Below, piece by piece: positions 1 through 64,000 of a stretch of DNA of 64,000 nucleotides. A program made the position numbers and the translations under genes. Under the pieces are notes generated by a model that worked only from the letters and a program-made list of their open reading frames with translations, was not told where the DNA came from and made no database searches. Location: IMG/VR virus record IMGVR_UViG_3300019487_000025; one strand, 5' to 3'. The DNA comes from a virus. Within the stretch, counting starts at the first letter, position 1. Every line of letters starts with the position of its first letter.

Positions 1-156
1 GGCTTATTCCATTTCAGATTCTTTGGATTCATTTAACATGGACACAGTTTTGGGATTGGCTAATTTATGGAACTATGTTAGAAATGGTGTTCACATATCC
101 AATAGCTAAGGCAGGGGTTAAATACAACCCAAAGATAACTAAATGGGTGAAGAAGA

Positions 157-348
157 ATGTTTAAGGCATATCGTAAATGGTGTCTTATGGTGGCGTGTCT
201 TTGGTTAGTTAATGCAATTTTAACTACAATTGTATTTATACAAGAACCATCTAAAACAACTTTCGGAATACCATATATCGTAGCACCTGTATTGACTTGG
301 ATACTTGTAATATGGTGGACTGTTTTTGCATTTTTAAAAAGAGGATGA
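157..348 (+). CDS. Small two-TM membrane protein
   Basis: ORF with two hydrophobic stretches; stop overlaps next ATG. Confidence 0.6.
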   Translation: MFKAYRKWCLMVACLWLVNAILTTIVFIQEPSKTTFGIPYIVAPVLTWILVIWWTVFAFLKRG

Positions 349-521
349 AAATGAGAATAATATGTCCAACTTGTAAGTATCTAGAATCACCCAAATGTGT
401 TGCATCATGTATTTTACACAATAATCCAGATAAGCAGAAATATTTTTGTTTTTGTGAAGGCGGGGTTACTAAACAAGAAATGAAACGACACTATAAAATG
501 AAGATTGATGAAGAAATTTGA
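345..521 (+). CDS. Cys-rich microprotein (CPTC...C...C..H...CFC)
   Basis: ATGA overlap at 345-348 suggests start at 345 rather than 297. Confidence 0.55.
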   Translation: MKMRIICPTCKYLESPKCVASCILHNNPDKQKYFCFCEGGVTKQEMKRHYKMKIDEEI

Positions 522-560
522 AGAAAAAAGTTAATACGAAAGTAGCACCATTTAAACAAT

Positions 561-665
561 ATGGATATATACTGTTTGAAATGTAAAAGATTAATGGTTG
601 AACATAAATCACAGAACATTCATATTTGCCTTGGATGTGAATACAGGGTAAAGGTAGAGTATTAA
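561..665 (+). CDS. 34-aa CxxC...CxxC zinc-ribbon microprotein
   Basis: Manual translation MDIYCLKCKRLMVEHKSQNIHICLGCEYRVKVEY; TAATG coupling to next ORF. Confidence 0.55.
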   Translation: MDIYCLKCKRLMVEHKSQNIHICLGCEYRVKVEY

Positions 666-751
666 TGGATAAATGTAAGAAATGTGGACGTAAAATTAGT
701 AATGATTTTGAAGATAAACTATGCCCAATGTGTTGGTGGATATTGAATTGA
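665..751 (+). CDS. 28-aa CxxCG...CPxC microprotein
   Basis: Manual translation MDKCKKCGRKISNDFEDKLCPMCWWILN; stop overlaps TTG of methyltransferase. Confidence 0.5.
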   Translation: MDKCKKCGRKISNDFEDKLCPMCWWILN

Positions 752-1239
752 TTACAGAAAAGTTCAAACCAATAGTTTGGCACTTACCTAGACCCAACCC
801 AACGCGATATAAAGGCAGTGTTCCACTTCATTTTGAAACAAAGTTTTTGAACTTTACTGGCATAAAAGAAAAGGGATTATTAAATATGTTTTCTGGGGGT
901 TCTAAAATGGGACACACAGTTGATATTAATCCAAAAGTAAAACCCAAGACTGTAGCAGATTGTCATAACCTGCCGTTTGATGATGAAAGCTTTGATAATG
1001 TGTTTTTAGATCCACCATATTCAAATGAAGAGTCGAAGCAACTTTACGGAACAGGAATATTAAAACCATCAAAATACGTGGGCGAAGCAATTAGAGTATG
1101 TAAGCCAAATGGAATAATTGCTCTTTATCATATCTATTGGGCACCAATTCCAGAAGGTTGTAATTATTTGGGAATTATAGCAATTATTACAAGAGTGTAT
1201 CACAAACCAAGATTGTGTACTCTTTTTAGGAAGAAATAA
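748..1239 (+). CDS. SAM-dependent amino (m6A/m4C) DNA methyltransferase-like protein
   Basis: Motif I-like LLNMFSGGS followed by catalytic FLDPPY; TTG start at 748 via TTGA overlap (track start 721). Confidence 0.75.
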   Translation: MITEKFKPIVWHLPRPNPTRYKGSVPLHFETKFLNFTGIKEKGLLNMFSGGSKMGHTVDINPKVKPKTVADCHNLPFDDESFDNVFLDPPYSNEESKQLYGTGILKPSKYVGEAIRVCKPNGIIALYHIYWAPIPEGCNYLGIIAIITRVYHKPRLCTLFRKK

Positions 1240-1428
1240 ATGAACCCTTTTGAATGTGGAACACTAGCACATAACGCGTGGGAGAGTAGAACTGGAGAAT
1301 CTAATTGTGATAAAAAAGAAGAAGTAAAATCACGAAAACGCCGTCAACCAATAGAAGTACCAACTTGGGAAGATTGGCAAGATTTTTTAAAGTCATGCGG
1401 TTTGTCCAAAAAAACAAACAAACCTTAA
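1240..1428 (+). CDS. Hypothetical protein
   Basis: ORF directly after methyltransferase stop. Confidence 0.5.
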   Translation: MNPFECGTLAHNAWESRTGESNCDKKEEVKSRKRRQPIEVPTWEDWQDFLKSCGLSKKTNKP

Positions 1429-1453
1429 TATATAGCATGATTGTAGGGATAGT

Positions 1454-1684
1454 ATGAAGCAACAATTAGTCTTCAAGAAAACACAGGTAACAATTCAACA
1501 AGAAAAAACTCTAAAAAATGTCTTAGAAGAGGCAATGATTGTTCAGGGACTTGATTTAGAATTGTTTGATAAAGTTGCAAGCCATGTGATTTTCAATGTT
1601 GAGGGTATGTTGGTTAGAGCCCTTGATACGATAATCAAAGTTGGTCAAACTGTGAAACTTATTCCTGCGGTCAAAGCAGGATAA
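1454..1684 (+). CDS. Ubiquitin-like beta-grasp protein (MoaD/ThiS/SAMP-like)
   Basis: 76 aa; C-terminus ALDTIIKVGQTVKLIPAVKAG resembles L..gD.v.llPavaGG of sulfur-carrier/SAMP proteins. Confidence 0.7.
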   Translation: MKQQLVFKKTQVTIQQEKTLKNVLEEAMIVQGLDLELFDKVASHVIFNVEGMLVRALDTIIKVGQTVKLIPAVKAG

Positions 1685-1709
1685 ACCCTCTTTTTGTTGT
1701 TATTTTTTT
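1685..1709 (+). terminator. Archaeal oligo-T terminator
   Basis: ccctctttttgttgttatttttt immediately after stop. Confidence 0.55.
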
Positions 1710-1749
1710 ACAAACAATAGTTTATATAATGTAGTGTTATAATATGTAC
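1710..1749 (+). promoter_or_regulatory. Divergent copy of repeated ACAAACAA-x3-TTTATATA promoter
   Basis: acaaacaatagtttatataatgtagtgttataa; ATG at 1750 lies at the same spacing as in the other copies. Confidence 0.6.
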
Positions 1750-2562
1750 ATGAGCAAAATGATTAATTTTGGTAATGGTCTTCAAAGAAAATACAAGACA
1801 AATCCAGAATCAGATATTGTATCAGATGCTGAAAAAACTCAAGCACAAAAAGATCGTGAAGCACTTAGAAAACATGCTGAATCTAGAAGAACCCAACGTG
1901 AAGTTAGAATGGAATATAGAGATGCCAATAGAAAATCAGTTGCTGAAGATGCAAAAGAGCAAATTGTTTTAACTAAAAGAGATGAAAAGACCAGACTTGA
2001 ACAATTAGAGGCTAATAAAGAAAATAGAATTGAAAGTCAAATAGAAGAAGCAAAAGAGAAAACAAATCATTTAGCTAGAAAACACGGTTTACAAGAACCA
2101 AATAATCCAGAAGCATTAAAACATGACAGGTTCCATTGTTATAACTGTGATATGAAATTACATATTCCAAATGCCTATAAAAATCTACCAAAAGAGGTTC
2201 AACAATTATTTGATAATGACAACGATGTAAGACACTTATGTTGTTTTTGTTTTGGTAAGATGGAAGATAACGAAATTATAGAATTGAAAAGTAAAGAATC
2301 TGACAAAAAAATAAGAATGGCAATTTATAATCCAGAAATGTATGTCAAAGAAAACGCGGAGGAATCACACCAAGAAGATATCAAACAAATACAAGAATTA
2401 ACAAAAGAACGAATTATGTACTACCAGTCAAAGATTAAGCAATATGAACATATTGTTTCATTCGTTGGAACTGTAAAACATGATAATTTACAGGAAGTAG
2501 ATGATCTTGAGAACACTGTAAGAAACCACGCATTTACAAGATATAATTATGGAGACAGATAA
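1750..2562 (+). CDS. Hypothetical coiled-coil protein with CxxC...CCxC zinc site
   Basis: ORF track; start placed at 1750 from promoter spacing. Confidence 0.7.
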   Translation: MSKMINFGNGLQRKYKTNPESDIVSDAEKTQAQKDREALRKHAESRRTQREVRMEYRDANRKSVAEDAKEQIVLTKRDEKTRLEQLEANKENRIESQIEEAKEKTNHLARKHGLQEPNNPEALKHDRFHCYNCDMKLHIPNAYKNLPKEVQQLFDNDNDVRHLCCFCFGKMEDNEIIELKSKESDKKIRMAIYNPEMYVKENAEESHQEDIKQIQELTKERIMYYQSKIKQYEHIVSFVGTVKHDNLQEVDDLENTVRNHAFTRYNYGDR

Positions 2563-2655
2563 ATGACTGGAAAAAATTGTGGTCATAAAAGATATAATCC
2601 ATGGTGTAACGAATGTTACGTTTATATGCTTGATCACACAAGAAAACATAGATGA
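2563..2655 (+). CDS. 30-aa Cys/His microprotein
   Basis: Manual translation MTGKNCGHKRYNPWCNECYVYMLDHTRKHR; ATGA overlap with next ORF. Confidence 0.45.
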   Translation: MTGKNCGHKRYNPWCNECYVYMLDHTRKHR

Positions 2656-2789
2656 CAACATTTAGCGATAGGTTTCTATGTCCTACCTGTATGTTTTGGA
2701 ATAAAAAATATAGGGGCATACTTCTTAATCTTGCATTACTTTTAGCAGGGTTGCTTGGATTTTCAATAGGATTAATGTTTGATGTATAA
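2652..2789 (+). CDS. 45-aa CPTC microprotein with C-terminal TM helix
   Basis: Manual translation MTTFSDRFLCPTCMFWNKKYRGILLNLALLLAGLLGFSIGLMFDV. Confidence 0.5.
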   Translation: MTTFSDRFLCPTCMFWNKKYRGILLNLALLLAGLLGFSIGLMFDV

Positions 2790-2821
2790 GTTCATAAGGG
2801 AGTTATTCGTATAAAAGTGAT

Positions 2822-3040
2822 ATGAGTGAGATTGATGAACGATTAAAACGGGTACAGGATCAAATAGATGAAATAAAGCCAGAGTATGACGCTTTTAACA
2901 AAAGACTAATGTTAAGCAAGGAAGAAGCAACTAGAAAAGCAGAAATAGGACATGAACTCTACAGGCTTAATATAGAAGCTATTGGGATACTTAATGAATT
3001 ACATAGAGAAAGAGATGAAGGAAAAAGGGATAGAGTATGA
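2822..3040 (+). CDS. Small coiled-coil hypothetical protein
   Basis: ORF track; TATA-like element upstream. Confidence 0.55.
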   Translation: MSEIDERLKRVQDQIDEIKPEYDAFNKRLMLSKEEATRKAEIGHELYRLNIEAIGILNELHRERDEGKRDRV

Positions 3041-3043
3041 ATT

Positions 3044-3250
3044 ATGGGGAGAGAAAGAATGGATGAAACTGAGATAAAGGAAAGAATAGAACAATATGAA
3101 GAATCAAAGAAAAAGATTTTTGAGGAATTAAAAACAAAGCAAGGTAGAGAACGAGAGGAAGTTGAATATAGAATAGAATGTGTTGAAGGACTGATAGATC
3201 ATTTATATGACCGACTTAACCCAACAAAAAAGAAGGAGATGTATAAATGA
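3044..3250 (+). CDS. Small coiled-coil hypothetical protein
   Basis: ORF track; coupled to next gene. Confidence 0.55.
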   Translation: MGRERMDETEIKERIEQYEESKKKIFEELKTKQGREREEVEYRIECVEGLIDHLYDRLNPTKKKEMYK

Positions 3251-3537
3251 GGCAATCAACCATAGCAATAATAGGTATTATATGTGCAGTTTCACTAGTG
3301 GCAGGATTGTTAGTATTATCACAACCACACACACAACCACCTATTATAAAACCACCAGTTAAACCACCATACAAATATGAAGTAAAGTGTTATGACATGT
3401 GTTACTCATTAATGAAGAATTTTTCAACGGGAGGATATGATCCAAGATTTTTAGCACTTCCAGAAGTTAAATCAACATGCATAGAAGCAATTAAAGATGG
3501 AGCAATATTGGGATTTTGTGATACTAATGGCAATTAA
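3247..3537 (+). CDS. Membrane-anchored protein with Pro-rich linker and Cys-rich ectodomain
   Basis: N-terminal TM, PPIIKPPVKPP, four Cys. Confidence 0.6.
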   Translation: MRQSTIAIIGIICAVSLVAGLLVLSQPHTQPPIIKPPVKPPYKYEVKCYDMCYSLMKNFSTGGYDPRFLALPEVKSTCIEAIKDGAILGFCDTNGN

Positions 3538-3627
3538 AAAAACATTATATCCTCTTGGAAAAGAGAAAGGTATGACTTTTTATATTTTTGAAGAACTTCC
3601 AAATATTTCAGTTTTGTCAGAGGATGA

Positions 3628-3921
3628 ATGGATATGACTGGTAGAAATAAGGACATATTTAATACCCCATGTTCAAATCCAGCATACACGCGAAATATGC
3701 TAATTGAAGAAATAAAAACAAGATATAGAAACGGATGGGAGTTAAATTGGTTTACAACCAATGTAAAAAGTTTTGGATGGGAGGATATAAATCCAGAAGT
3801 TAGTAAGTTTTTGAAGAGATTAAAGACACTAGATTTTGAACGAGCAGATGTATCATTTTTTAATCCAACTACAAAAGATACGGTTTATGAATGCTATGAG
3901 CTGGTAAAAAATGAAATGTGA
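3628..3921 (+). CDS. Hypothetical protein
   Basis: ORF track. Confidence 0.55.
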   Translation: MDMTGRNKDIFNTPCSNPAYTRNMLIEEIKTRYRNGWELNWFTTNVKSFGWEDINPEVSKFLKRLKTLDFERADVSFFNPTTKDTVYECYELVKNEM

Positions 3922-4055
3922 ACATAAAGCAAGTCCAAACTATGAATATCAATGCATATTAGAAAGAGGACATAAAGGTGGTCATAAGTATAATATAGGC
4001 AATCATAAAGAAATACAACTTTCTGGGTGTTGTCCTGATGGACAAATAGCAAAAT

Positions 4056-4247
4056 ATGAGTCAGAAGATTAAACTAACATGTCCATATTGTCATTATTAT
4101 GATACTCCCGACTTGATGATAGAAGTGATATTCACTAATGTATCCTTTGAGTTTAAATGTAAGATATGTGAAAAGAATGTGAGGATATATGTACCACTTA
4201 AAGAATATGGAGAAGTCACATATACAAAGATTGGAAAAGGAGAGTGA
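4056..4247 (+). CDS. Zinc-ribbon protein (CPYC...CKIC)
   Basis: Two CxxC motifs. Confidence 0.6.
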   Translation: MSQKIKLTCPYCHYYDTPDLMIEVIFTNVSFEFKCKICEKNVRIYVPLKEYGEVTYTKIGKGE

Positions 4248-4759
4248 TTATGGACGATATGTCTAAGTATTATTTTTCAAAAGATGAACTCTTATCACAA
4301 ATTAAGTTATTGGACAAATACCAACAAAACAGCGAAGAATACAAGAATCAAGGATTAAAGATAATTGCGTCATATTGCAAGCCATTAATACTAACTAAGA
4401 AAGGAATAGATTGTGGTTTAGATTTACTCGCCAAATATAAAAGTGGATTAAAACTAAGTAGAACAGAATTATTTAATTTGTACATAGTTGGAACTGAAGC
4501 TAATCTTATTACTGGTGGAAAAGGAACGTATGAATTGCTATCATCAATATGGAAAGAAATACAGGAAAAATACAATCCAGATGCAGATTATCTACAATCA
4601 TATATCTATGAACGAATATTTACAGATGGGTATATGAAGGGAAACCCAAGTTATACAGAAAACTTGAACAAAACTGTGAAAAATTATACTAGTGAAAGAC
4701 CGGCATTAAGGGCGATATTCTTTACAATAGATATTCATATTATGAGGGATAAAACCTAG
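4244..4759 (+). CDS. Hypothetical protein
   Basis: 171-aa ORF coupled to previous gene. Confidence 0.65.
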   Translation: MIMDDMSKYYFSKDELLSQIKLLDKYQQNSEEYKNQGLKIIASYCKPLILTKKGIDCGLDLLAKYKSGLKLSRTELFNLYIVGTEANLITGGKGTYELLSSIWKEIQEKYNPDADYLQSYIYERIFTDGYMKGNPSYTENLNKTVKNYTSERPALRAIFFTIDIHIMRDKT

Positions 4760-4802
4760 TGTTGAAAAAATGATAATAAGCAACGAAATCTAATGGTGAT
4801 TT

Positions 4803-5099
4803 ATGGTGAAAAAGAAAAGTAAGAAAGAACAGGATCATGATTTTTACTATGAAGGTGGGAGAGTACACTTATATGAAGCCGATGCATTTATATCACAAAT
4901 AAAGCACATGATGAGAGATGTAATACCAGACGTTGATTTCGCTGTATATTTAGGTGTAAATGACAGAGATTGTATAGATGTTTGGGTTAGAGATGAAAAT
5001 GAAACAATGTATCAAATAGAACCAAAAAATTTAGATAATGAAGAGAGTGAAATAAGATTAAGGGAAGTAGATAATGAAGGAGACGACGAAGATGAATGA
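4803..5099 (+). CDS. Acidic hypothetical protein
   Basis: ORF track. Confidence 0.6.
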   Translation: MVKKKSKKEQDHDFYYEGGRVHLYEADAFISQIKHMMRDVIPDVDFAVYLGVNDRDCIDVWVRDENETMYQIEPKNLDNEESEIRLREVDNEGDDEDE

Positions 5100-5382
5100 T
5101 GAATTAATTAGAATGTTTAATATAAATACTGCCCCGGAAACAATTTTACATGAATTCACAGGACTTAACAACGAATATAAAAGATGTGAATCAGTGTGTA
5201 TTGATAGTGATTCTTATGGGTTTAAAATGCAGTGTAATTTAAAGGCAGATCATGAACTTGAACACGCTTATGGAATAGACAGTTGTTTATGGTATCTTTT
5301 AGATGGAGTAGAACAATGTAAAGGAGACGATCATATAGGTAATTGTGCAGTTTGTTGGGTAAGGGAGGTTAGAGATAGATGA
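5074..5382 (+). CDS. Cys/His-rich hypothetical protein
   Basis: C...C.L...H...H and C...H...CxxC patterns. Confidence 0.55.
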   Translation: MKETTKMNDELIRMFNINTAPETILHEFTGLNNEYKRCESVCIDSDSYGFKMQCNLKADHELEHAYGIDSCLWYLLDGVEQCKGDDHIGNCAVCWVREVRDR

Positions 5383-5584
5383 CCAGATGCCGTAGATGTG
5401 GATGGTACTATAAGAATATAAAGGACTGGCTATATCATCAATATGACCATAAAAATGGAAGAACAAGAAAATTTGGGAATACTCGACGAAATTCTATTCA
5501 AAAGACTTCTGGCGGAAATGATAGAAAAGGGAATAGTTAAATACATTGAACGCGTTGAAAGAGGTAAGAGAATAAGGTATTATT

Positions 5585-5728
5585 ATGTGTAAACATATGG
5601 ATGATAATGGAATAGCTTTGTTTGAAATAAAACAAAAAAAGGGGCAATCTCCACTTTATATTTGTAAGCTTTGTCATGGTTCATTTAATCAATTTCAGGC
5701 GGAAGCCATATTGGAGGGATTATTATAA
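5585..5728 (+). CDS. 47-aa zinc-finger microprotein, paralog of 5728..5943
   Basis: Manual translation MCKHMDDNGIALFEIKQKKGQSPLYICKLCHGSFNQFQAEAILEGLL; TAATG coupling. Confidence 0.6.
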   Translation: MCKHMDDNGIALFEIKQKKGQSPLYICKLCHGSFNQFQAEAILEGLL

Positions 5729-5943
5729 TGGGAATTTGTCATCATTTAGATTGGGATAATTTACAGATATTAGTAGATGGCAGAAAACAACCACCTACTT
5801 ATAGATGCATATTATGTGATAAAGAATTTAATGAGAAAGAATACAAAGAAATAATAAAAGAGATTAGACAAAAGGTTAAGGATCATAAATTAGATGAATG
5901 GAGAACTCCAAACGGTGAATTACAAAAGGTGGAAGAAGAATGA
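5728..5943 (+). CDS. Zinc-finger protein (CxH...CxxC)
   Basis: CHHL...PTYRCILCDKEFN. Confidence 0.6.
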   Translation: MGICHHLDWDNLQILVDGRKQPPTYRCILCDKEFNEKEYKEIIKEIRQKVKDHKLDEWRTPNGELQKVEEE

Positions 5944-6130
5944 ATAAGAATAGAATATGTAAAAAGAATGAAAAACATTATATAGATGATTGGGGATGCG
6001 TAGATTGTATGTTTGATGCATTATCAGAAAAATTATGGAAAGAAGATGAGGAAGATGGAAATAGATGAAAACAAACTATGGTTCTGTGAAAGAAAAGGAT
6101 ATCATATAATGTATAAAGAGTGGATAAAAG

Positions 6131-6310
6131 ATGATTGATGACGAAGCAGAAAGAATAAACAAAGCAATAGTAAGAAGAGAAAAGGCATTAAGAAAAGGTG
6201 ACGAATCTAAAGCCAAATCAATAGAAGAAGAATTAGCAAAAGAAGGATTTGAAATATATGACACAAAAGATATAACATATGTCAATAGAAAAAAGAAAGC
6301 AAATATCTGA
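6131..6310 (+). CDS. 59-aa protein resembling the C-terminal helical tRNA-binding domain of cysteinyl-tRNA synthetase
   Basis: Manual translation ...INKAIVRREKALRKGDESKAKSIEEELAKEGFEIYDTKDITYV..., matching the recalled CysRS pattern R..Ar..kd...aD.ir..L...Gi...D....t. Confidence 0.5.
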   Translation: MIDDEAERINKAIVRREKALRKGDESKAKSIEEELAKEGFEIYDTKDITYVNRKKKANI

Positions 6311-6479
6311 GATGTGTCCTATTTGTGAAGATTGGTCTGGGAAGAACGTTAAATTTAAATTATGTGAAAAATGTAAATTTGAATCAGAGATAATGTATAA
6401 CGCGGTTATGATAAATGTGGGAGAAGAAGATAATCCCGTTTTCAAGTCACTAAAGGAAATCATGGAACGTAAATTATGA
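6279..6479 (+). CDS. Zinc-finger protein (CPIC...CEKC)
   Basis: Two CxxC motifs. Confidence 0.55.
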   Translation: MSIEKRKQISEMCPICEDWSGKNVKFKLCEKCKFESEIMYNAVMINVGEEDNPVFKSLKEIMERKL

Positions 6480-6525
6480 TGTTCTGCACACAAACATTTA
6501 TTAATAGGTATGGGGTAGGGTATAT

Positions 6526-8661: not shown

Positions 8662-8691
8662 CTTTATATATCTCTTTGTTATCTATTTGAC

Positions 8692-8895
8692 GTGGAACCA
8701 CGTTATCATTGTAATGAAGAAATGGAATATTTGGGGATGAAAGATAAAGAACATTGGTTTGAATGCAAACAATGTAGTATAAGAGAGGCAACATTAGATC
8801 CAGAAAAGCCTACAACTCCAGAAGAAAAACCATCGAAAAGCATGTTAGAATACGGCAGTGCAACACTAATAGGCAAGAGTATATATCATAATTAA
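8692..8895 (+). CDS. Zinc-ribbon microprotein
   Basis: HC...CKQC; GTG start after TATA element. Confidence 0.5.
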   Translation: MEPRYHCNEEMEYLGMKDKEHWFECKQCSIREATLDPEKPTTPEEKPSKSMLEYGSATLIGKSIYHN

Positions 8896-8920
8896 CTATG
8901 TTTATATTCTACACAAGGTA

Positions 8921-9271: not shown

Positions 9272-9303
9272 GTTTATATTACTCGTAATACTTACTAACG
9301 ACA

Positions 9304-9696: not shown

Positions 9697-9750
9697 AACC
9701 TTCCCACTTTTTTCTAATCATTTATATTACCTAAATAACAAGGATTTCCC

Positions 9751-9993: not shown

Positions 9994-10023
9994 TTAATAT
10001 TACCCATAAAATAAGGGTATGCC

Positions 10024-10134
10024 ATGACGAGATCAAGAGCAGATAGACTTGGAATAGGTATTACACTATTCATCCTCGCGGGTGCATTGGGTGTTACCTA
10101 TGCCAAAATAGTAGGAATTCCAATAGGTTTCTAA
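10024..10134 (+). CDS. 36-aa single-TM microprotein
   Basis: Manual translation MTRSRADRLGIGITLFILAGALGVTYAKIVGIPIGF. Confidence 0.45.
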   Translation: MTRSRADRLGIGITLFILAGALGVTYAKIVGIPIGF

Positions 10135-13953: not shown

Positions 13954-14131
13954 ATTTAATGGAAGAGATTACCTATTAAGGAAATTAAATGAATGGGAAA
14001 TTAACTCAGTGAGAGCAGGTGGATTAGAATATCTTGTTGCAACAAACCTGATTATAATAGAAGAGCTTCAAAAACTTAACGGTTTGTTAAGAAAACCAAA
14101 AGAACCAAAATCAATGTTGGATGTATCATGA
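13946..14131 (+). CDS. Hypothetical protein
   Basis: In frame with track ORF 13868; ATG overlaps previous gene end; ATGA-coupled to PCNA. Confidence 0.55.
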   Translation: MPKFNGRDYLLRKLNEWEINSVRAGGLEYLVATNLIIIEELQKLNGLLRKPKEPKSMLDVS

Positions 14132-14862
14132 AATTTAGTGCAACCATAAGAACAACAAAAGAGTTCAAAACAGCAATTTCATCAATTCAAGGACTTATAG
14201 AAGAAGCCACATTTTATGTCAACAAAGACGGAATAAAGTTTAGAGGGTTGGAACCATCCCATGTGAGATATTTAGAAGTAACATTCCCTGCCGATAGATT
14301 TCTTAGTTTTAATATTGAAGATGAATTGAAATTCACTATAAAGCCAAACGATTTTCTGGAAGTAGTAAAGCGAGCAAAAGACGGAGATCAAATAACGATA
14401 GAGGTGGAAAAGGAAAATGCTCCTTTGAACGTTCATATTGAAGGTAGAAAACATTTTACACTTGGTTTGATTTCTATTGAACACGATGCACCAGTTCCAC
14501 ACTTCAAGTTTCCATCAAAAACTGTTATGCCATATTCCAATTTTAGTGACTATGTAAAAGATATTGCTGTTGTTGGATCTAATTTTGTGGTGGAAATAGA
14601 AGAAGGTAAAATGAAGATATCGGGTAAAGGAGATCGCGGAAAAGTGGAAGTTGATGCTGAAGGAAGTATGGTTCAAATACAAGAAGGAAAGATTAAAAGT
14701 GAATTCGCAATAGATTTTCTTGTGGAAGCTATAAAGACGTTTGGAACAGCATTTGAAAGTATTACAGTAGAAACTGGTAATAATATGCCACTTAGTCTTA
14801 CTTTAGATAGTCCTGCTATGGGAACTATTCAATATGTTCAAGCTCATAAACAGTTGTCATAA
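14128..14862 (+). CDS. pcn: PCNA DNA polymerase sliding clamp
   Basis: 244 aa; FKTAISSIQGLIEEATFYVNKDGIKFRGLEPSHVRYLE and GNNMPLSLTL...GTIQYVQA match archaeal PCNA. Confidence 0.9.
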   Translation: MKFSATIRTTKEFKTAISSIQGLIEEATFYVNKDGIKFRGLEPSHVRYLEVTFPADRFLSFNIEDELKFTIKPNDFLEVVKRAKDGDQITIEVEKENAPLNVHIEGRKHFTLGLISIEHDAPVPHFKFPSKTVMPYSNFSDYVKDIAVVGSNFVVEIEEGKMKISGKGDRGKVEVDAEGSMVQIQEGKIKSEFAIDFLVEAIKTFGTAFESITVETGNNMPLSLTLDSPAMGTIQYVQAHKQLS

Positions 14863-18857: not shown

Positions 18858-19424
18858 TTGATAGAAGGGTGGGTAGCGATGAATTATCTTGAATATGAGC
18901 ACATAATAGAACAATTTGATGTTTATCCATATGACACTCACAAAACACTGTATTATATTACTGGAGTAAATGGAGAATATGATGAATTATTAGAAAAGAT
19001 ATATGAATCTAGGATTAACAACGAAATTAATAGAGAAGAGTTAATGAAGGAAGGAGGTGATGTTTGTTGGTATCTTACAAGATTGGCTAACTCATTTAAT
19101 ATTTCCATTGCAAAATTAATACCAAGTCAAATACCAAAACCCAATTCATTTGAAGAATTAATGAAAATGATTCATCACGCAAGAGGAAAACTAACTGAAA
19201 CAATAAAGAAACTGTACAGAGATAACAGAGGAAAAGCAGATTATCAGGTTATGATAAATATAGATGTTTATCTATGTAAAGCTTTTGCTGTATTAAAATT
19301 ACTTGGAGAGAACTATCAAATAAGCCTAATTGATATGATGGAATCAAACGTAAAAAAACTAACACTTAGAAAAGAGAAAAATCTATTACATGGTAGTGGA
19401 GATAGTAGGGAGGTAACACTTTAA
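18858..19424 (+). CDS. mazG: MazG-like nucleotide pyrophosphohydrolase with duplicated helical unit
   Basis: GEYDELLEK...KEGGDVCWYL; C-terminal NVKKLTLRKEKNLLHGSGDSR typical of viral MazG-like proteins. Confidence 0.8.
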   Translation: MIEGWVAMNYLEYEHIIEQFDVYPYDTHKTLYYITGVNGEYDELLEKIYESRINNEINREELMKEGGDVCWYLTRLANSFNISIAKLIPSQIPKPNSFEELMKMIHHARGKLTETIKKLYRDNRGKADYQVMINIDVYLCKAFAVLKLLGENYQISLIDMMESNVKKLTLRKEKNLLHGSGDSREVTL

Positions 19425-22642: not shown

Positions 22643-23047
22643 ATGGCAAAAGATATAAAAGCTGGTGGTTACGTAACAAAAGATTCTGGAAAAAGGGAAA
22701 ACCACAAATCAGGTGCTGTACGTGATATCAGATTTGGCAAAGGTAGATATGATTTAATTTCACCATTAGCCACAAAGCGAAGAGCTGGTGTTTATGAAAG
22801 AGGTGCATTAAAATATGAGGATAGAAATTGGGAAAAAGGAATGAAGCTAAGTCGATATCTTGATTCTGCAAAAAGACATTTGGATCAATATCAAGAAGGA
22901 TTGAGAGATGAAGATCATTTGGCACAAGCAGGATGGAATATAGATGCTATGATGCACACGGAAGAAATGATTAAACGTGGGTTTTTACCAAAAGAATTAG
23001 ATGATTTACCAAGATATGTAAAAAAGCAAAAAAATGAGGCGAAATAG
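22643..23047 (+). CDS. dATP/dGTP diphosphohydrolase domain protein (DUF5664-like)
   Basis: SGAVRD...GKGRYDLI...GALKYEDRNWEKG...YLDSAKRHL...EDHLAQAGWN. Confidence 0.85.
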   Translation: MAKDIKAGGYVTKDSGKRENHKSGAVRDIRFGKGRYDLISPLATKRRAGVYERGALKYEDRNWEKGMKLSRYLDSAKRHLDQYQEGLRDEDHLAQAGWNIDAMMHTEEMIKRGFLPKELDDLPRYVKKQKNEAK

Positions 23048-39984: not shown

Positions 39985-40341
39985 ATGGTAAACATAATTC
40001 CAGATATTAAGGTAGGCAATATAGGCACGCGTCTACGCGTAAGAATGACAAAAGTGAAGGATTCTATAGCACCAGAAAATGTTAAAGGCGATCCTTCTGA
40101 AAGAGAACCAGTAAGCTTATCAACTACTTCAGGAACATGGATAGAATTAGAAGTTCCAAAAGGCAAAAGAAAACCACTTTTAGTAGCAACTATTATAGAT
40201 TCTCAAAATGGGTTAATGGAGCATATTGATTCTGTTGGTATATTTGATGTTGACGGAAGATGGAAAATTCGAGGTGTAGTTCAATTTAATTCGGGTAATA
40301 TATTTAAAGGAACTTGGACTGGCTTCATGGTAGGTGATTAA
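39985..40341 (+). CDS. BppU-N-like Ig domain protein
   Basis: VGNIGTRLRV...GIFDVDGRWKIRGVV. Confidence 0.6.
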   Translation: MVNIIPDIKVGNIGTRLRVRMTKVKDSIAPENVKGDPSEREPVSLSTTSGTWIELEVPKGKRKPLLVATIIDSQNGLMEHIDSVGIFDVDGRWKIRGVVQFNSGNIFKGTWTGFMVGD

Positions 40342-57700: not shown

Positions 57701-57933
57701 ATTTGAAAATAAAAGCACAAGCTTCAAGAGAAAGAAAGAAATTTGTTGAGCAGGCTTGGTTTATGCAATGTCACGGAGATGTAAGATTAAGATTTGGAGA
57801 AGAATTTATAGCACAAGGAGATAGAGTTCCCGGCGGTTCGCAAGAATTAATATGTGCAGAAGTTAAACATATTATAGATAATGATGGTTATATGATGCAA
57901 ATTACAGGCAAACGAAAGTTTGTTTTTGAATAA
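54733..57933 (+). CDS. Tail tip/baseplate hub-like protein
   Basis: 1066 aa; C-terminal GDVRLRFGEEF...EVKHIIDNDGYMMQITG typical of hub OB region. Confidence 0.6.
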   Translation: MSFINPNAFYQEELILLDKNLEAPTPITEGQVINGDLQPFRARLELVNTGNELQNNGVITLRIPPDGTFVRKEPILIDESAKDDYIIQARIKQDRDKDGVYETEGRLFRFFIGQPSLIDNALTGETLKITLISVEYHTRETLDSERITFPFKTPKEAFFRRVSAYNTIKGNQNTQLIFTSSDIKLPNAESLRQDWRPLAPTPTHDLLREIVKRQSLSGIEGGVFRDFFFDYEPFALSTKAVSLKAEEEGTTNRGVILDPLTFNFVSDTEKDKTINVDLIKFKNNIIMEGNPLGGTLPMENARFSSIYEHAKIRPDWDSTTQYFNGSNNTDQSEIKVFDQVLSQPRFFKALQTTGNININPLDHPSRALFWEEDFVTIPDYNKYASYNEDDIIVYDGGSGTVRFYRALQDVPNNPTNLSTYIPQVGGTPYWQDTGRSFPAGLEHPLKDPSVPTGLARAGRTQFFSYTPWTEDFEAMRVATLFGIGDSQQEDNFEEAGYQGVVPDWNFVRSNFDRVDALNQYEQVVGKDVIKTLSNAPPEGERYLGARYLVSASPTGLFTGQANRIAEYIGPDFGLSANTVDEWAFSKFPEHGEVICHQARGVMLVWRNTTAQWEDFSNILDVTPGNVDDTIWKKIIDGTIASTFFFIITALGPIAGTAVSFLFDTATFASATKQSPLHICKDIKLVEGASGIPGQAFELRFDWNPFKSNFHFNGESGGDKKNYNSIGAWWYMSFPYPKIPTFGRNVGDTYQNPVIDSNNLTLNHKGEYGWNNGLDSEDLGRIQKVHFKARLSLYGSVFGQLALGYADMPMIFWAVDIFDRIWYAQFKLRRNGQYSYQSLSFGENSMQLIHHGRYDEYLKLFGIVLETDWLIKEKEFSGIEFDWRFVKGMGMFYEAGYNNEGLYVANQFPDYVKNISEQVAGQTFPFIVSTALPGEAYQPKDLLVNNARLAIDELHFEKQSFVNSDDQSLRVLGANSRTKLDHDASEVDYLNLKIKAQASRERKKFVEQAWFMQCHGDVRLRFGEEFIAQGDRVPGGSQELICAEVKHIIDNDGYMMQITGKRKFVFE

Positions 57934-57944
57934 GGTGAAACGAA

Positions 57945-60900
57945 ATGAGTTATGAACCAGACACAATGGATCGAGCAATAAGAGAAGTAAGGGAAGAATT
58001 AAACAAAATAAGAGAGCAACAATTTTTTAAGGCATTTTCAACAGGTTCAGGTGGTTCTGGTGTATCTAAATCAGGTAGCAGTATAGGTGGTTCATTGCCA
58101 GCAACAGGTATAGCTTCATTTACACCAAACGCAATTAGACTAACTAAAGATACTGGCGTAATAGACAAATTGGATTATAAAAATCTAGTTTTAAATATGG
58201 ATTTTACTATAGGAGAAACAATAACTGGTGGGACATCTGGTGCAACCGCTGTTATTGGAGATATAGATATATTGACTTCAACTACTGGTGTTCTAATACT
58301 TGTTCCTAATTCTATTTCTGGAGTTTTTGTGGATAGTGAAAACTTAACTGGAGACATAAATGGAGATGCAGATGTTGATGGAACACTTTACACACAAACT
58401 GGTAGAGGTCACCTAAATGCTGGTTCTGCTTCAATTATAGTAATAGGTGTTGATTTACCATATGAAATTCATTTTATAGATAATGCAAAACAAAACGGAC
58501 AAATAGTATTATTAAGAGCACAAGACACTCAAACAATAAAAGTTAGAAGAGCAGTAACAAACGATAGAAACACAGGAAACATAGATTTGGATTCTTCGTT
58601 TAATATAGTAGAAAATGCAATAGTAATTCTTCAATATCAAGGAGCAAGTAATGTAACACCTGATGGTGGTTGGGTTCCAGTTTTATCTAGTGTTACTACA
58701 ACCACTGGTACTGGTACTGGCATAGATTTTCCAATACTTTATCCTAAAGAAGATTTAGGAGATCAATCATTTGTAACTGTAAGTCTATTATTGAATCAAT
58801 CAAATGGTCACTACAAAAGAATAAGAATGACTGGAGACATATCATTGGCATTTAACAGTCCACCACCTTCAACGAATGGATTTAAATTTTATGTATTATT
58901 AGTTCAGGATGGAACTGGAGGATGGGATTTAACATCATTACCAACTTCTGTTAAAAATGGTTCTTCTATATTAACACAAATAGATTCAACTGCAAATTCA
59001 CAAACTTTAATACAATTTGTAACTGCTGATGGAGGAATAACATATCACGCACAAATAATACAACCATCTGGTTCTGCAATAGATAATCCTTGGACTACTA
59101 ATCATGATGCAAATACATATGATTTATTTAATTTGGATAAACTATTATTTGCACCAGCGGGTGGATTTAGTTTCCCTACAGATAATACATTAAAAGGATT
59201 TTCAACGTCAGGTACGGGCATAGAAGCAAATGTTTCACCATCACAACAATATAGATGGTATATCGGTGGTTTCGAACATATGACATTAGATACTTTTGAT
59301 TTGTTTATGCATAATTTTAATATAAGAGATTTGAAATTATTAGCTTTTAGCAATAACGGTTCGTTCAGTGCTCAGATAGCAAGCATTCCATCTAGTGCTC
59401 AATTAAACTATTCTGTAGTTGGTGCAGGTGCGAATCATGGATTTTATGTAGATAATGGAGTAAATGCAAACATGGAAATGAGATTGAATGTTAATAAATC
59501 AAATGTTAATTTAGACATGGTTACAAATGATATATTAAATATAGATCAAGCACAATTTGATCAGTTTGGTGGATTTGTTCCTTCAATCAATCACGGTGAA
59601 AGAAGAATTACTGGTGGTAATGCTGGAATAAATATAAACATACCACAACCACCAGAACCAATTCTTAGATCACTAAGAATCTGGATAGAGAATGCAACAC
59701 AAACAAATAGTAATGTAGAGTATGAATTTAATAAGGATAAAGCATTGTGGAATAATAATATAATTCAAGATTTAGGTGGAATAATATTCACTCCGTTTTC
59801 GGGATTTTCTGCTTCTATATCTCCCCTTTTTAATTTTATTGAATATAATACAGGAGTTTCTACGATGGCACATAGATTTAATGTTGCTGGTATACAAGTA
59901 TTAGAAATAAATGGAACGGAAACTGGTACAAATCAAGGTAAAATCAAATTGTTCCATGATCTTAATCTTCAAACACAAGATATAACTAATGTTGATAGAT
60001 TACATTTCAATTCAAATAACGGATTGGTTGGAGGAAACCAATTTGCAATCGCTGGTGATTTTCCACTTGGAAGAGGATTTCAATTTAATGCCCCATTAAG
60101 CAAACAATTTAGATTCAGTGAGAATGATATACCAATAATGCAATTAACAAACGGACTTCTTGAAATGAAGACAACTGTTTTTGAACCTAATCCAACAATT
60201 AGTACGCATCAATTATTTTTATCTACACATACGGCAGGAATAACTGGAATGGGTGATGGAGTGATTAGATTAGTAAATAATGGAGGTTCATTTGATGTAA
60301 TGGTGGGAACTGGTGGGTTTATAAGAAATTTGACAAATCCGGGTACAACATCATTTGTAGGATTTACAGCAGATGATGATCTAAACATGGGTACTTTCAA
60401 TATCTTTAATGTAGATGTGATAAGATATGCAATAGACAGTGGGGTAATAGGATTTGGAGAATATGGCTCAGCTGTTGATTCAACTAATACAAAATTAAAA
60501 TGGAGTGTTCCAATAAATAAATTCTACGAATTTGAAGTTAATCTAGATCCAGTTGCATCTATAAGCACCGCTGGAATACAAGCTTTATCAAATACATTAA
60601 TTCCAAATCCATCGGTAAGGGCTAGGGAACTTGCATTATCTGGAGCACATACTGGAGGAGTCAGTGGAATGGCTAACGGTGCATTTAGATTAGTAGGAAC
60701 AGATGTTATAGTTAGAACAGGAAGTAACAATCTTAATTTATCATCACTTGTTGCTAGTTCTGGAGCTACAAGACAATTAGATAATCTTTTAGTTACTTCA
60801 ATTAATGCCGATTTACTTCCTCAAACTAACCTTTCGATTGGAAGTTCACTTTCAGTATGGGATGATGTATTTGCCAAATTAACAGATTATGCTTCAGTAG

Positions 60901-61526
60901 CTTCTACAAATAGTTCAAGAAGACAAATATTTAGAGATGTTTCGGGTGGAATAGGTGTTAATGTTCCAACAGGGGATCAAGTGAGATTTTATAGACAAGG
61001 AACATTTGGATTTGGTATAAGTGGAAATGATATTACTGTTACAGGATATACAAATACAAATAGAATTCAATTAGGAGTTTCACCAAGTAATCCAACATTT
61101 CCGGGAGAATTTAGAATGGTTGGTTCTGACGTTTTTGTATTTTCTGGCGGTGTTGCAAGAAATCTATCATCAATCGGTGTAGGTGGAGTAGATCAAAACA
61201 ATACATGGACTGGTACAAATACATTTACTGCTCCAGTTACTTTTACTAGTAACGTTACTTTTGTAGATGGCACTATATCGATTTTTGACATAGCAGGAAC
61301 CGCTGTTAACTTAATTACTGCACAAACTATAACTGGTAATAAGACATTTAGTGGTTCTTCAGTATTTAGCGGATCATGGAGACATACAGGTTCACAATTA
61401 GCGTTCTTTGGATCAAGTTTACAATCAAAGTTACCAACTGTTTCAGCAACTGGTTCTCTAGCATCTGTAACTTCTGCATTTAATTTATTAAGAAATGTTC
61501 TAGTCCAATATGGATTAATTAACTAA
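57945..61526 (+). CDS. Tail fibre/receptor-binding protein
   Basis: Gly/Thr-rich modular repeats; C-terminal LAFFGS...LRNVLVQYGLIN. Confidence 0.75.
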   Translation: MSYEPDTMDRAIREVREELNKIREQQFFKAFSTGSGGSGVSKSGSSIGGSLPATGIASFTPNAIRLTKDTGVIDKLDYKNLVLNMDFTIGETITGGTSGATAVIGDIDILTSTTGVLILVPNSISGVFVDSENLTGDINGDADVDGTLYTQTGRGHLNAGSASIIVIGVDLPYEIHFIDNAKQNGQIVLLRAQDTQTIKVRRAVTNDRNTGNIDLDSSFNIVENAIVILQYQGASNVTPDGGWVPVLSSVTTTTGTGTGIDFPILYPKEDLGDQSFVTVSLLLNQSNGHYKRIRMTGDISLAFNSPPPSTNGFKFYVLLVQDGTGGWDLTSLPTSVKNGSSILTQIDSTANSQTLIQFVTADGGITYHAQIIQPSGSAIDNPWTTNHDANTYDLFNLDKLLFAPAGGFSFPTDNTLKGFSTSGTGIEANVSPSQQYRWYIGGFEHMTLDTFDLFMHNFNIRDLKLLAFSNNGSFSAQIASIPSSAQLNYSVVGAGANHGFYVDNGVNANMEMRLNVNKSNVNLDMVTNDILNIDQAQFDQFGGFVPSINHGERRITGGNAGININIPQPPEPILRSLRIWIENATQTNSNVEYEFNKDKALWNNNIIQDLGGIIFTPFSGFSASISPLFNFIEYNTGVSTMAHRFNVAGIQVLEINGTETGTNQGKIKLFHDLNLQTQDITNVDRLHFNSNNGLVGGNQFAIAGDFPLGRGFQFNAPLSKQFRFSENDIPIMQLTNGLLEMKTTVFEPNPTISTHQLFLSTHTAGITGMGDGVIRLVNNGGSFDVMVGTGGFIRNLTNPGTTSFVGFTADDDLNMGTFNIFNVDVIRYAIDSGVIGFGEYGSAVDSTNTKLKWSVPINKFYEFEVNLDPVASISTAGIQALSNTLIPNPSVRARELALSGAHTGGVSGMANGAFRLVGTDVIVRTGSNNLNLSSLVASSGATRQLDNLLVTSINADLLPQTNLSIGSSLSVWDDVFAKLTDYASVASTNSSRRQIFRDVSGGIGVNVPTGDQVRFYRQGTFGFGISGNDITVTGYTNTNRIQLGVSPSNPTFPGEFRMVGSDVFVFSGGVARNLSSIGVGGVDQNNTWTGTNTFTAPVTFTSNVTFVDGTISIFDIAGTAVNLITAQTITGNKTFSGSSVFSGSWRHTGSQLAFFGSSLQSKLPTVSATGSLASVTSAFNLLRNVLVQYGLIN

Positions 61527-61552
61527 TAGGTTATATATGAGAGTGTGGAAAT

Positions 61553-61801
61553 ATGATTATGGCAATAGATGAAAATGTGGTTACAACTTTACTTGAAAAA
61601 TTATATATAAAGTTAAGCGAAACAGTTGATACTGAAAGACGGTTAGGGCAATTAATTAATGCTTTAATTACAATAAGAAAAGCACCAGATGATTCTTTAC
61701 CAATAGATACATTAACAGGTAATACAATGACTGAAGATAGAAGAAGCGAAATACTTGAAGCGACAATAAGGAACTCAATTCAATTTGTCGGAGGTGAATA
61801 A
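61553..61801 (+). CDS. Hypothetical protein (possible fibre chaperone)
   Basis: Follows fibre gene. Confidence 0.55.
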   Translation: MIMAIDENVVTTLLEKLYIKLSETVDTERRLGQLINALITIRKAPDDSLPIDTLTGNTMTEDRRSEILEATIRNSIQFVGGE

Positions 61802-61803
61802 CA

Positions 61804-62094
61804 ATGAGCAAAAAGAACAATAAAGGTGTAGTAGATTTATCACAACCAAAAGGAGCAGAACCAAAAACTCCACAGCCAGAGCAACCACAAATGACTGAAG
61901 AACAAGCATTTATGGCTTATATAAATAATTTGATGAGTAACACAATATTGGAACATGAAAATGCAAAAACTTCATCAATAGAAGCAATAAAAAACATAGG
62001 TCAAAAACTAAATCTCTATATGAGAGAAGTAAGCCGACTAACAAAGGAAAATGAAGCACTTAAGAAACAGGTGGATGAACTAAAGAAAAAGTAG
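61804..62094 (+). CDS. Coiled-coil hypothetical protein
   Basis: ORF track. Confidence 0.6.
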   Translation: MSKKNNKGVVDLSQPKGAEPKTPQPEQPQMTEEQAFMAYINNLMSNTILEHENAKTSSIEAIKNIGQKLNLYMREVSRLTKENEALKKQVDELKKK

Positions 62095-62122
62095 TTCATT
62101 TATATTACCCTGCTAGGTAAAT

Positions 62123-62545
62123 GTGTCTAATATGGCAGAACTGACTCAAGAAGAAAAAGACAAAGCGTGGACTAATCTAAAATTTTGGTGGAAAGTTAAA
62201 AAAGGCGAAGAAAAAGGAGATCCAGAAAAGGCAAAAAAGGAAATAAACAAGATTCAAAAATTACTTGGTGTTGAAATAACAGATTTTGATAAAGAAGAAC
62301 CAGCCAAAGATGTAAAAGAATACACAAATGAAACAGCAGAAGCATTCTTCACAGAAGAGCAAATAGAAAAAATGAAAACCAATGTGGAAAGAGCAATCGC
62401 CATAAAATATTTATTGTCTGGCATGATAGTAAAACACATGCCGTCTTTGAAGGGAAACGCACCGGGAATTGGTCAAGTAGTAAATATCACATATGATTTA
62501 ATAAAAGATGATTTAAAGAAAATGTTGAAAGAGGATACAAAATGA
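62123..62545 (+). CDS. Hypothetical protein
   Basis: ORF track; TATA element upstream. Confidence 0.6.
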   Translation: MSNMAELTQEEKDKAWTNLKFWWKVKKGEEKGDPEKAKKEINKIQKLLGVEITDFDKEEPAKDVKEYTNETAEAFFTEEQIEKMKTNVERAIAIKYLLSGMIVKHMPSLKGNAPGIGQVVNITYDLIKDDLKKMLKEDTK

Positions 62546-62799
62546 GTGTAAAAACAACATTGAAACTTGGTGATGAAGTACATAATTTTGATGAACACGA
62601 TCAATTTTATCATACACCAGAAAATTTACGACAATTAGAAACATTTAAAATTGGTATGGGTATAATGGTACAATCAATAGAGTTACAAAATCCTAAGATG
62701 AAAAACAAACGAATAGAAGTGATTATAGAATTCGAAGATGATGGATTTTATGTTGTAATAGGAAGAAAACCAAAAGAGGTGGAGGGTTTTGGCACCTAG
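62542..62799 (+). CDS. Hypothetical protein
   Basis: ATGA-coupled ORF. Confidence 0.55.
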   Translation: MSVKTTLKLGDEVHNFDEHDQFYHTPENLRQLETFKIGMGIMVQSIELQNPKMKNKRIEVIIEFEDDGFYVVIGRKPKEVEGFGT

Positions 62800-63994
62800 G
62801 AAAAAAGAAGAGATACAGCAAAATCTTCAAGAAGTTGAAGAAGCACTAAGCTTTAATCTAGCAGATATTGAAGGTATTGGACCCGTTAAGTTAAAAAAGA
62901 TGCATGATAATGGAATATTTGAGGCTTCTGATTTAATAATTAGAGGTCCTAAAGAATTAGCAGTTTTGCTTGACTTGGATACCAGTCAAACAACAAAAAT
63001 GATAGAGGATGCAAAAGAATATTTACGTAGTAAAGGTGTTGTAAAAAAAGCAGTTTTTACAGGAAGAGAATATTATAACTTTGAAACACTAACACGATAT
63101 AAATTAAGTAGCGGTGTAGAAGGATTTGATGAAATAATGAATGGTGGGTTTGAAAGTGGTTCGTTAACTGAATTATATGGAGAATTTTCATCTGGAAAAA
63201 CACAATTCTGTTTCTTGTCTACTATTATTGCACAGCTTCCATATAAGAAAAAATGTCACAGATGTTTCGAAGTATTTAATGATCAAAAGATAGAAAGATG
63301 TCCAAAATGTGATGTAAAAACGATAAAAATTGGTGGGTTATCAGAAGAAGGACAACCATGTCGTATCATTTATATTGATACAGAAGGAACATTTAAACCA
63401 CATAGAATAGAACAGATTATTTATGAACGAGGTTTAGTACAAACAAAAGTGCAAACTAAACTGGAAGAAAAAAGAAAAGATCCAAAAAAACCACTTAATG
63501 AAGAAGAAAGAGAAAAAGCATTAAAGTTTTTGGATAATGTAATTTTAATCAAAGTATCAAATGCAGGACATCAAACGTTAGTAGGTGAAGAGTTAGGCAC
63601 ATATATAAATGATAAAATTCAAGCACCAGTAAGACTCGTAATAATTGATTCGATTACTGCAACATTTAGACTTGATTTTCTTGGAAGAGGAGAAATAGGA
63701 GAAAGACAACAATATCTAACAAAACATGTAAAACACATATCAAGACTTTGTGATACATATAACATAGTGGGTATTATAACTAATCAGGTACTAAAATCAC
63801 CTACAGGGTTTGGTGATCCTAATGTGGCTTCTGGTGGAACAGTTTTAGCACACACATCATCACATAGAATATACCTACAAAAAAGTGGTAAAAAAATAGT
63901 TGCTAGAATAGTAGATTCGCCAGATCATGCGAAATCTGAAGTAATTTTAGAACTTACTAATAAAGGAGTAGAAGACGCAACTGCTTCATCATAA
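62789..63994 (+). CDS. radA: RadA recombinase with zinc-ribbon insertion
   Basis: HhH LADIEGIG; Walker A GEFSSGKTQ; YIDTEGTFKPHRI; IIDSITATFR; ITNQV; GGTVLAHTSSHRIYL. Confidence 0.93.
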   Translation: MAPRKKEEIQQNLQEVEEALSFNLADIEGIGPVKLKKMHDNGIFEASDLIIRGPKELAVLLDLDTSQTTKMIEDAKEYLRSKGVVKKAVFTGREYYNFETLTRYKLSSGVEGFDEIMNGGFESGSLTELYGEFSSGKTQFCFLSTIIAQLPYKKKCHRCFEVFNDQKIERCPKCDVKTIKIGGLSEEGQPCRIIYIDTEGTFKPHRIEQIIYERGLVQTKVQTKLEEKRKDPKKPLNEEEREKALKFLDNVILIKVSNAGHQTLVGEELGTYINDKIQAPVRLVIIDSITATFRLDFLGRGEIGERQQYLTKHVKHISRLCDTYNIVGIITNQVLKSPTGFGDPNVASGGTVLAHTSSHRIYLQKSGKKIVARIVDSPDHAKSEVILELTNKGVEDATASS

Positions 63995-64000
63995 CACTTA

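Follow-up and report, generated by a model that had tools for sequence, protein, structure and literature searches.

Four short palindromes and two amino-acid pairs are absent from 64 kb of an archaeal-type tailed virus genome

The stretch of viral DNA analysed here (the window; positions 1-64000 of IMG/VR record IMGVR_UViG_3300019487_000025) belongs to an archaeal-type tailed virus and forms part of a 139,429-bp metagenomic contig. Exact counting found no copy of four words, GCNGC, GGCC, GCGC and CCWGG, in its 64,000 bases, and its proteins contain neither Ala-Ala nor Trp-Pro. The genetic code connects the two absences: Ala-Ala is necessarily written GCNGC and Trp-Pro necessarily TGGCC, so that a genome in which GCNGC and GGCC are banned cannot encode either pair, and both are missing from all proteins. 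Very probably (roughly 85%), the cause is that the virus avoids Type II restriction sites while the restriction–modification repertoire of its hosts changes. The case is an extreme, family-wide form of the known dodging of host DNA-cutting enzymes. The region concerned is as follows.

1..64000, both strands: window-wide word-free domain, in which GCNGC, GGCC, GCGC and CCWGG are all absent and Ala-Ala and Trp-Pro are absent in six frames

First-order Markov expectations for the window are 37 copies of GCNGC, 51 of GGCC, 21 of GCGC and 43 of CCWGG, and shuffling codon order within genes gives 62.3, 35.6, 18.9 and 59.1, with none of 200 shuffles near zero (Poisson probabilities of finding no copy of 9e-28, 4e-16, 6e-9 and 2e-26, respectively). 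The zero counts of GCNGC and GGCC agree with the prediction of a first-pass annotation of the window, which had nevertheless taken the evidence for GGCC avoidance to be the weaker; GGCC proves to be purged as strongly as GCNGC (0 versus 35.6). An unbiased scan identified GGCC and GCGC as the only 4-mers missing from the window. Among 5-mers with an expectation above 4 and neither of these words inside, only CCAGG, CCTGG, GCAGC, GCTGC, GCGGC and CTCGG were missing; CTCGG is absent at an expectation of 6, and the others make up CCWGG and GCNGC. Non-palindromic words were not lost, and control palindromes stand near expectation, with 38 copies of CCGG (30 expected), 18 of CGCG (12 expected), 192 of GATC and 27 of GGWCC. 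All four purged words are short palindromes matching classical Type II specificities, namely Fnu4HI-type for GCNGC, HaeIII-type for GGCC, HhaI-type for GCGC and EcoRII/BstNI-type for CCWGG. The purge does not stop at the window end: the next 10 kb of the contig, which were also read (74 kb in total), show it too. Among the remaining words, AGCT reaches only about 60% of its expected count in the window (93 versus 156-164), and CATG, CTNAG and CANTG are likewise low.

At the protein level, the 101 plus-strand open reading frames (ORFs) of the window, which comprise 19,366 amino acids of which 5.2% are Ala, contain no Ala-Ala against 52.1 expected and no Trp-Pro against 9.4 expected. Because both pairs are at zero in all six reading frames, the result is independent of gene calls. 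The first-pass annotation had noted both absences, placing that of Ala-Ala in about 19,000 amino acids, and had pointed to a capsid protein with about 60 Ala in 590 residues and 6-7 Ala-Ala expected; the count for that protein is 62 Ala, with 6.5 Ala-Ala expected and none seen. Its further remark that out-of-frame GCNGC was missing also held: there is no copy, whereas 5.6 would be expected with the proteins held constant. These observations bear on the idea that selection acts against Ala-Ala in the proteins themselves, for example through a viral or host protease that cuts there. We found no specific support for this idea, which can be virtually discounted: GCNGC is missing from the other frames, the non-coding strand and the intergenic DNA as well, and three other DNA palindromes are purged synonymously alongside.

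A reshuffle restricted to synonymous changes, with the proteins kept, gives expectations of 5.6 copies of GCNGC, 21 of GGCC, 20 of GCGC and 29 of CCWGG, indicating that the last three words were removed largely by silent recoding. Each Gly-Pro pair is written GGNCC and each Pro-Gly pair CCNGG. All 27 Gly-Pro pairs in the window are coded with GGA or GGT, and all 25 Pro-Gly pairs with CCC or CCG, rare codons that make up 11% of Pro codons and through which Pro-Gly is kept at 44% of expectation. Likewise, not one of the 997 Ala codons is directly preceded by an NGC codon, and TGG or AGG never follows an NCC codon. GCNGC left less room for recoding: Ala-Ala pairs would account for about 56 of the 62 copies expected, so that about 90% of its purge required protein changes. 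No Ala-Ala was rescued as GCC-GCN or GCG-GCN, which means that GCSGC is banned too and that the word is GCNGC, not merely GCWGC. The opposite solution is seen in one relative (L017): it is depleted in GCWGC, and of its eight Ala-Ala pairs six take the form GCS-GCN. Gly-Pro and Pro-Gly both reach only about half of their expected numbers in the window and in close relatives, which may be a legacy of alternating bans. We also considered out-of-frame GCNGC avoidance in Ala-Ala-bearing relatives and rejected the idea, the 1-2 or so sites expected per locus in AT-rich coding sequence being too few to reveal it.

The purge is a lineage-wide pattern, and its word set differs among relatives. G001 and L001/L002/L004, whose capsids are 93% identical, have the GGCC, CCWGG and GCNGC bans in common with the window; over its full 98 kb, G001 keeps four copies of GCGC and also lacks CAATTG. 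G002 (IMGVR_UViG_3300025167_000008, L030-L033; capsid identity 92%) bans GCGC, CCWGG, GCNGC (0 in 80 kb) and GGWCC. Each of its 17 copies of GGCC is a Gly-Pro pair coded GGC-CCN or GGG-CCN, the only remaining way to write this pair once GGWCC is banned, and GGCC seems to be tolerated there only where the second ban forces it. Each of the 13 Gly-Pro sites conserved between G002 and the window has GGC or GGG in G002 but GGA or GGT in the window (13/13), and G001 has the same coding as the window at 22/22 common sites. Trp-Pro in G002 is still at 0, with 14 expected.

A more distant relative, G003 (IMGVR_UViG_3300009103_000015, L021-L024; capsid identity 53%), is a complete genome of 77,876 bp with terminal repeats and lacks about 20 palindromic or near-palindromic words. 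These include GTAC (0 versus 135), CTCAG (0 versus 61), GAATTC (0 versus 40) and CAATTG (0 versus 41), as well as GTWAC, CTSAG, ACATGT, CCGG and all CCNGG. Being without CCNGG, G003 is also without Pro-Gly (0 versus 46 expected), and it contains no Ala-Ala or Trp-Pro. Other relatives (L014, L015, L016 and L020) carry GCNGC, nearly all of it as Ala-Ala, and purge sets differ among the window and G001, G002, G003, L014, L017 and L018. An assembly artefact was ruled out, as the purge recurs, with other sets of words, in assemblies made independently by several projects. Taken together, the palindromic Type II words, the recoding of Pro-Gly and Gly-Pro, the variation of the purge set among relatives and the use of mutually exclusive codons at orthologous Gly-Pro sites argue for selection at the DNA level.

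Such selection could in principle have a different agent: the words might be shed to escape 5-methylcytosine (m5C) methylation by the host, since methylated DNA would be cut by Type IV (McrBC-like) nucleases of the next host. All four words purged from the window are classical m5C methylase targets, and the methylases predicted in thaumarchaea for CCWGG, GCWGC and GGCC are all of the m5C type. However, G003 also purges GTAC, GAATTC, CAATTG and CTSAG, which are typical of N4-methylcytosine (m4C) or N6-methyladenine (m6A) or of plain Type II systems, and the quick swaps of single words between close relatives fit individual Type II systems; nothing obtained pointed to Type IV nucleases. Escape from methylation therefore appears unlikely to us.

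Two genes of the window were compared with their homologues.

47269..49041, plus strand: major capsid protein (MCP), HK97-type, 590 amino acids including 62 Ala, with 31% identity to the protease/MCP of the Nitrososphaera provirus Pro-Nvie1

62789..63994, plus strand: RadA/Rad51 recombinase, with 18 Ala and no Ala-Ala

The capsid has at least 281 homologues. Among the 120 best capsid homologues from public metagenomes, in which Ala accounts for about 10% of residues, 93 have no Ala-Ala. One capsid, P0021, is 81% identical and has seven Ala-Ala pairs against 6.0 expected, on a contig with 13 copies of GCNGC against 11 expected; its Ala-Ala content at expectation indicates that the capsid fold tolerates the pair. 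Ala-Ala occurs in at least one of 24 representative capsids at 30 alignment positions; there, the sequences free of it mostly read Ala-Ser, Ser-Ala, Ala-Gly or Gly-Ala, and in one conserved stretch two sequences have Ala-Ala-Ala and 11/11 Ala-Ala-free ones have Ala-Ser-Ala. A FastTree phylogeny of 116 capsids requires 12 changes of Ala-Ala state, at least eight of which are forced by well-supported branches; the Ala-Ala-bearing capsids tend toward long terminal branches. The viral RadA clade behaves in the same way, with 45 of 46 proteins lacking Ala-Ala (one pair seen versus about 55 expected), whereas 74 more distant, mostly cellular homologues have 166 pairs versus 164 expected. One RadA column is Ala-Ala in 51 of 70 distant homologues; the window has Asp-Ala there, and its viral relatives have Ser-Ala, Lys-Ala, Asp-Ala or Gly-Ala. 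A comparison of orthologues for swaps of this kind had been proposed in the first-pass annotation, and Ala-Ala columns of both capsid and RadA read Ala-Ser, Ser-Ala, Ala-Gly or Gly-Ala in purged lineages.

Overall, Ala-Ala was replaced mostly through Ser and Gly, which are transversions, and not through Val or Thr, and it is back at expectation in lineages carrying GCNGC. Both results count against mutational decay, in which methylated C deaminates and an AT-rich genome drops GC-rich words without any selection. G+C does make up only 33% of the genome, and a mild shortage affects several further words that contain GC. However, the equally GC-rich CCGG and CGCG are at or above expectation, the words that C-to-T deamination would produce are not in excess (ratios of 0.45-1.35), and about 170 expected sites are wholly lost, about 56 of them needing an amino-acid change. 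Decay of this kind is, in our judgement, extremely unlikely.

The reading that we favour, restriction-site avoidance, would operate as follows. A virulent head–tail virus of an uncultured marine archaeon, with a head module like that of a thaumarchaeal provirus and archaeal PCNA, RadA and MCM, would belong to a lineage selected to lose every recognition word of several orthodox Type II enzymes present in the host population. Sites would be removed synonymously where the genetic code permits and by altering the protein otherwise, with Ala-Ala and Trp-Pro pairs replaced, mostly by Ala-Ser, Ser-Ala, Ala-Gly or Gly-Ala. With no cytosine-5 methylase apparent in the virus to protect the sites, their absence would itself be the protection, and the banned set would shift between relatives as the host restriction–modification repertoire turns over. 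We infer the role of restriction enzymes as selecting agent, and likewise the virulence of the virus and the identity of its host. The first-pass annotation had proposed long-term selection by a host GCNGC system strong enough to constrain amino-acid sequence; the constraint on proteins is borne out by the counts, the recoding and the orthologue swaps, but the purge covers four words rather than one or two, and the cognate host enzyme is a matter of inference. On a wider scale, the balance tips slightly towards host restriction enzymes being a standing constraint on protein evolution across an abundant marine archaeal virus family, with dipeptides such as Ala-Ala, Trp-Pro and Pro-Gly switched off and on at least eight times in step with the banned words, even at the Ala-Ala position common to most distant RadA homologues. 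The half-depleted Gly-Pro and Pro-Gly would then be what is left of alternating GGCC/GGWCC and CCWGG/CCSGG bans.

PF00145 (cytosine-5 methylase) had no match in five related contigs, one of which is a complete genome, and no DNA methylase family was found among the window ORFs in Pfam scans, 74 kb of the 139-kb contig having been seen. The sole methylase-like gene seen in the window is the following.

721..1239, plus strand: small ORF resembling a generic S-adenosylmethionine methyltransferase; it matches Methyltransf_11 and RsmD-like families weakly and does not belong to the cytosine-5 DNA methylases

N6/N4 methylases occur in only two of the five related contigs, and G003 had no match to a cytosine-5 (C5) or N6/N4 methylase. 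No tyrosine integrase was matched in the five related contigs or in the window scans, the absence of this one family not being proof of a non-temperate lifestyle. A further possibility is that host DNA is cut up at these words by nucleases of the virus's own, in the manner of chloroviruses, the viral genome being safe because it has no sites. Most window ORFs are unannotated, weak Vsr-like and HNH matches occur at the locus of a relative (L015), and a PD-(D/E)XK-like gene lies just past the window. By contrast, no restriction-endonuclease family was found by Pfam among the 101 window ORFs, the 4-20 specificities per genome would require many nuclease genes, and relatives that are 93% identical have different word sets although no gene turnover is obvious between them. 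We consider viral nucleases very unlikely as the explanation; both they and methylation escape are less economical than restriction avoidance.

Nearly all genes of the window lie on the strongly purine-rich plus strand. Further recognisable ones are the following.

44983..47187, plus strand: prohead protease-like protein, the C-terminal part of which matches the protease part of the Pro-Nvie1 protease/MCP

40334..44536, plus strand: large virion protein, 1400 amino acids with a RelA/SpoT domain at the C-terminus, in the position of the Pro-Nvie1 portal gene plus a separate Rel_Spo-like protein

14128..14862, plus strand: PCNA sliding clamp, an archaeal-type replication gene

In a tblastn search of 50,697 phage records, Pro-Nvie1 (FR725450.1) was the sole match of the capsid (E 1e-42) and the protease (E 1e-11), at 29-31% identity. 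The two elements also have the gene order portal, Rel/Spo-domain protein, protease and capsid in common, so that the head module is syntenic with that of a thaumarchaeal provirus. Pro-Nvie1 is a 20-kb integrated (temperate) element of 53% G+C that shows no word avoidance; unlike it, the window virus has a 139-kb contig of 33% G+C and its own PCNA, RadA and MCM, and no integrase was seen in its relatives. In encoding a sliding clamp, MCM and a RadA-like ATPase, it resembles the magroviruses of Marine Group II, which are marine archaeal tailed viruses of 65-100 kb (PMC5434244). The magrovirus head module has been described as halovirus-like (PMC5434244), whereas the window capsid and protease have no match among the haloviruses of the phage collection, only the thaumarchaeal provirus; it is the window RadA that matches those haloviruses.

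As a clue to the host, the head module points to Thaumarchaeota, and for the replication genes a magrovirus-like virus infecting Marine Group II would be a further fit (PMC5434244). Thaumarchaeal m5C methylases predicted in REBASE and tabulated in a review (PMC11033074) include those for CCWGG in Cenarchaeum and Nitrosopumilus AR2, GCWGC in Nitrosoarchaeum limnia, GGCC in Nitrosopelagicus brevis, and GGWCC and GTAC in Nitrososphaera viennensis. AGCT (m4C) and GATC (m6A) are listed as motifs of Nitrosopumilales, and AGCT is reported to be methylated in marine members (PMC11033074). These predicted specificities, the only support from the side of the putative hosts, overlap well with the words banned in the virus family. 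A capsid-profile scan of a genome collection returned two binned contigs only, one in an archaeal bin and one in a Flavobacteriaceae bin, the latter probably mis-binned. The archaeal bin (G006, contigs L044-L055), which had no AmoA or rhodopsin match, is a mixture in which several contigs have purge patterns of their own: GGCC (0 versus 29) and CCGG (0 versus 16) are missing from C114 (L049/L050), GGWCC is at 0 and GGCC enriched in C1 and C3, and GCGC is missing from C56 (0 versus 11). It also contains seven C5-methylase matches, the best of them broken by five stop codons, which cannot be assigned to a host because the bin is mixed. No spacer linked virus and host, the relatives contain no amoC and the window no tRNA genes, and no cellular neighbour with an informative name emerged from searches with RadA and MCM; one RadA fragment carries the label Nitrosopumilaceae.

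Several points weigh against restriction avoidance as set out above. Escape from cleavage and escape from methylation look alike at the level of sequence, and most ORFs have no recognised function, so that an unrecognised DNA-modifying or nuclease gene could be among them. The routes tried led to no host, a gene for a cognate restriction endonuclease did not come to light, and the relative's contig in G006 sits in a mixture that gives no host call. The thaumarchaeal assignment draws on the head module only, as the clamp, MCM and RadA are typical of magroviruses too (PMC5434244), and the thaumarchaeal table entries shown, whose specificities are only predicted, include none for GCGC or the full GCNGC (PMC11033074).

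Restriction-site avoidance as such is well documented. A survey by Rusinov et al. 2018 (PMC6286503) found it mainly for orthodox Type II sites in non-temperate double-stranded DNA viruses and found none in temperate phages, and phages do not as a rule avoid GCNGC, which falls below expectation in just 22.5% of genomes (PMC6286503); the subject has also been reviewed (PMC8410138). Like non-temperate double-stranded DNA phages and archaeal viruses (PMC6286503, PMC8410138), the window virus is depleted in short palindromic Type II words and lacks a cognate methylase. Consistent with the known avoidance, its temperate relative is unaffected and the avoided set would track the host repertoire. Unlike in the surveyed cases, the purge of the window is total for four words and has forced non-synonymous change, with two dipeptides banned, a third banned in relatives, and Gly-Pro and Pro-Gly halved. 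Reviews treat avoidance as synonymous codon choice, neither survey nor review mentions a reach into proteins (PMC6286503, PMC8410138), and a full-text literature search found no paper on dipeptide loss from site avoidance. The mechanism is known, and its protein-level reach is little described. The present case contributes a family of archaeal-type viruses, repeated reversals on a gene tree and, at orthologous codons, a clean swap between GGCC and GGWCC.

Site avoidance is usually described as silent; here amino-acid pairs are forbidden in every viral protein, with internal controls, and the ban persists across a large, environmentally common virus family and is reversed once the DNA constraint lifts. 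The family would thus offer a concrete case of how far innate immunity can limit viral protein sequence space, and a sequence-only route to the restriction specificities deployed by uncultured marine archaea. It also calls for caution, because DNA-level selection, and not protein function, may lie behind dipeptides that viral proteins lack or behind unusual substitutions in them. If host restriction does act as a standing constraint across the family, banned-word sets would be a readable record of the restriction–modification pan-repertoire of hosts not in culture, by which viruses might be paired with host populations.

Further products of the window include fibre-like proteins with fn3, Ig and lectin domains, and ten of its large proteins have no PHROGs annotation. 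One ORF of a pair (22643-23047 and 18858-19424) matches PF18909, the N-terminal domain of dATP/dGTP diphosphohydrolase (E 3e-18), a family whose name refers to purine dNTP diphosphohydrolase; the second has a weak MazG match, and both are nucleotide-pool enzymes. The 10 kb of contig beyond the window end (L038 11207-21206) contain three tandem 82-amino-acid paralogue-sized ORFs, NAPRTase, a metallophosphatase, an MCM helicase and the PD-(D/E)XK-like protein mentioned above. At 139 kb, the contig exceeds those of the relatives (78-98 kb). A gene resembling that of the CCA-adding enzyme (tRNA_NucTransf2) lies just upstream of the capsid gene in relatives (L015 8647-9933, L017 8510-9928 and L018 996-6605). 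In L018, tRNA_NucTransf2 and RelA/SpoT domains are combined in one 1869-amino-acid protein; in the window, the RelA/SpoT domain ends the 1400-amino-acid virion protein.

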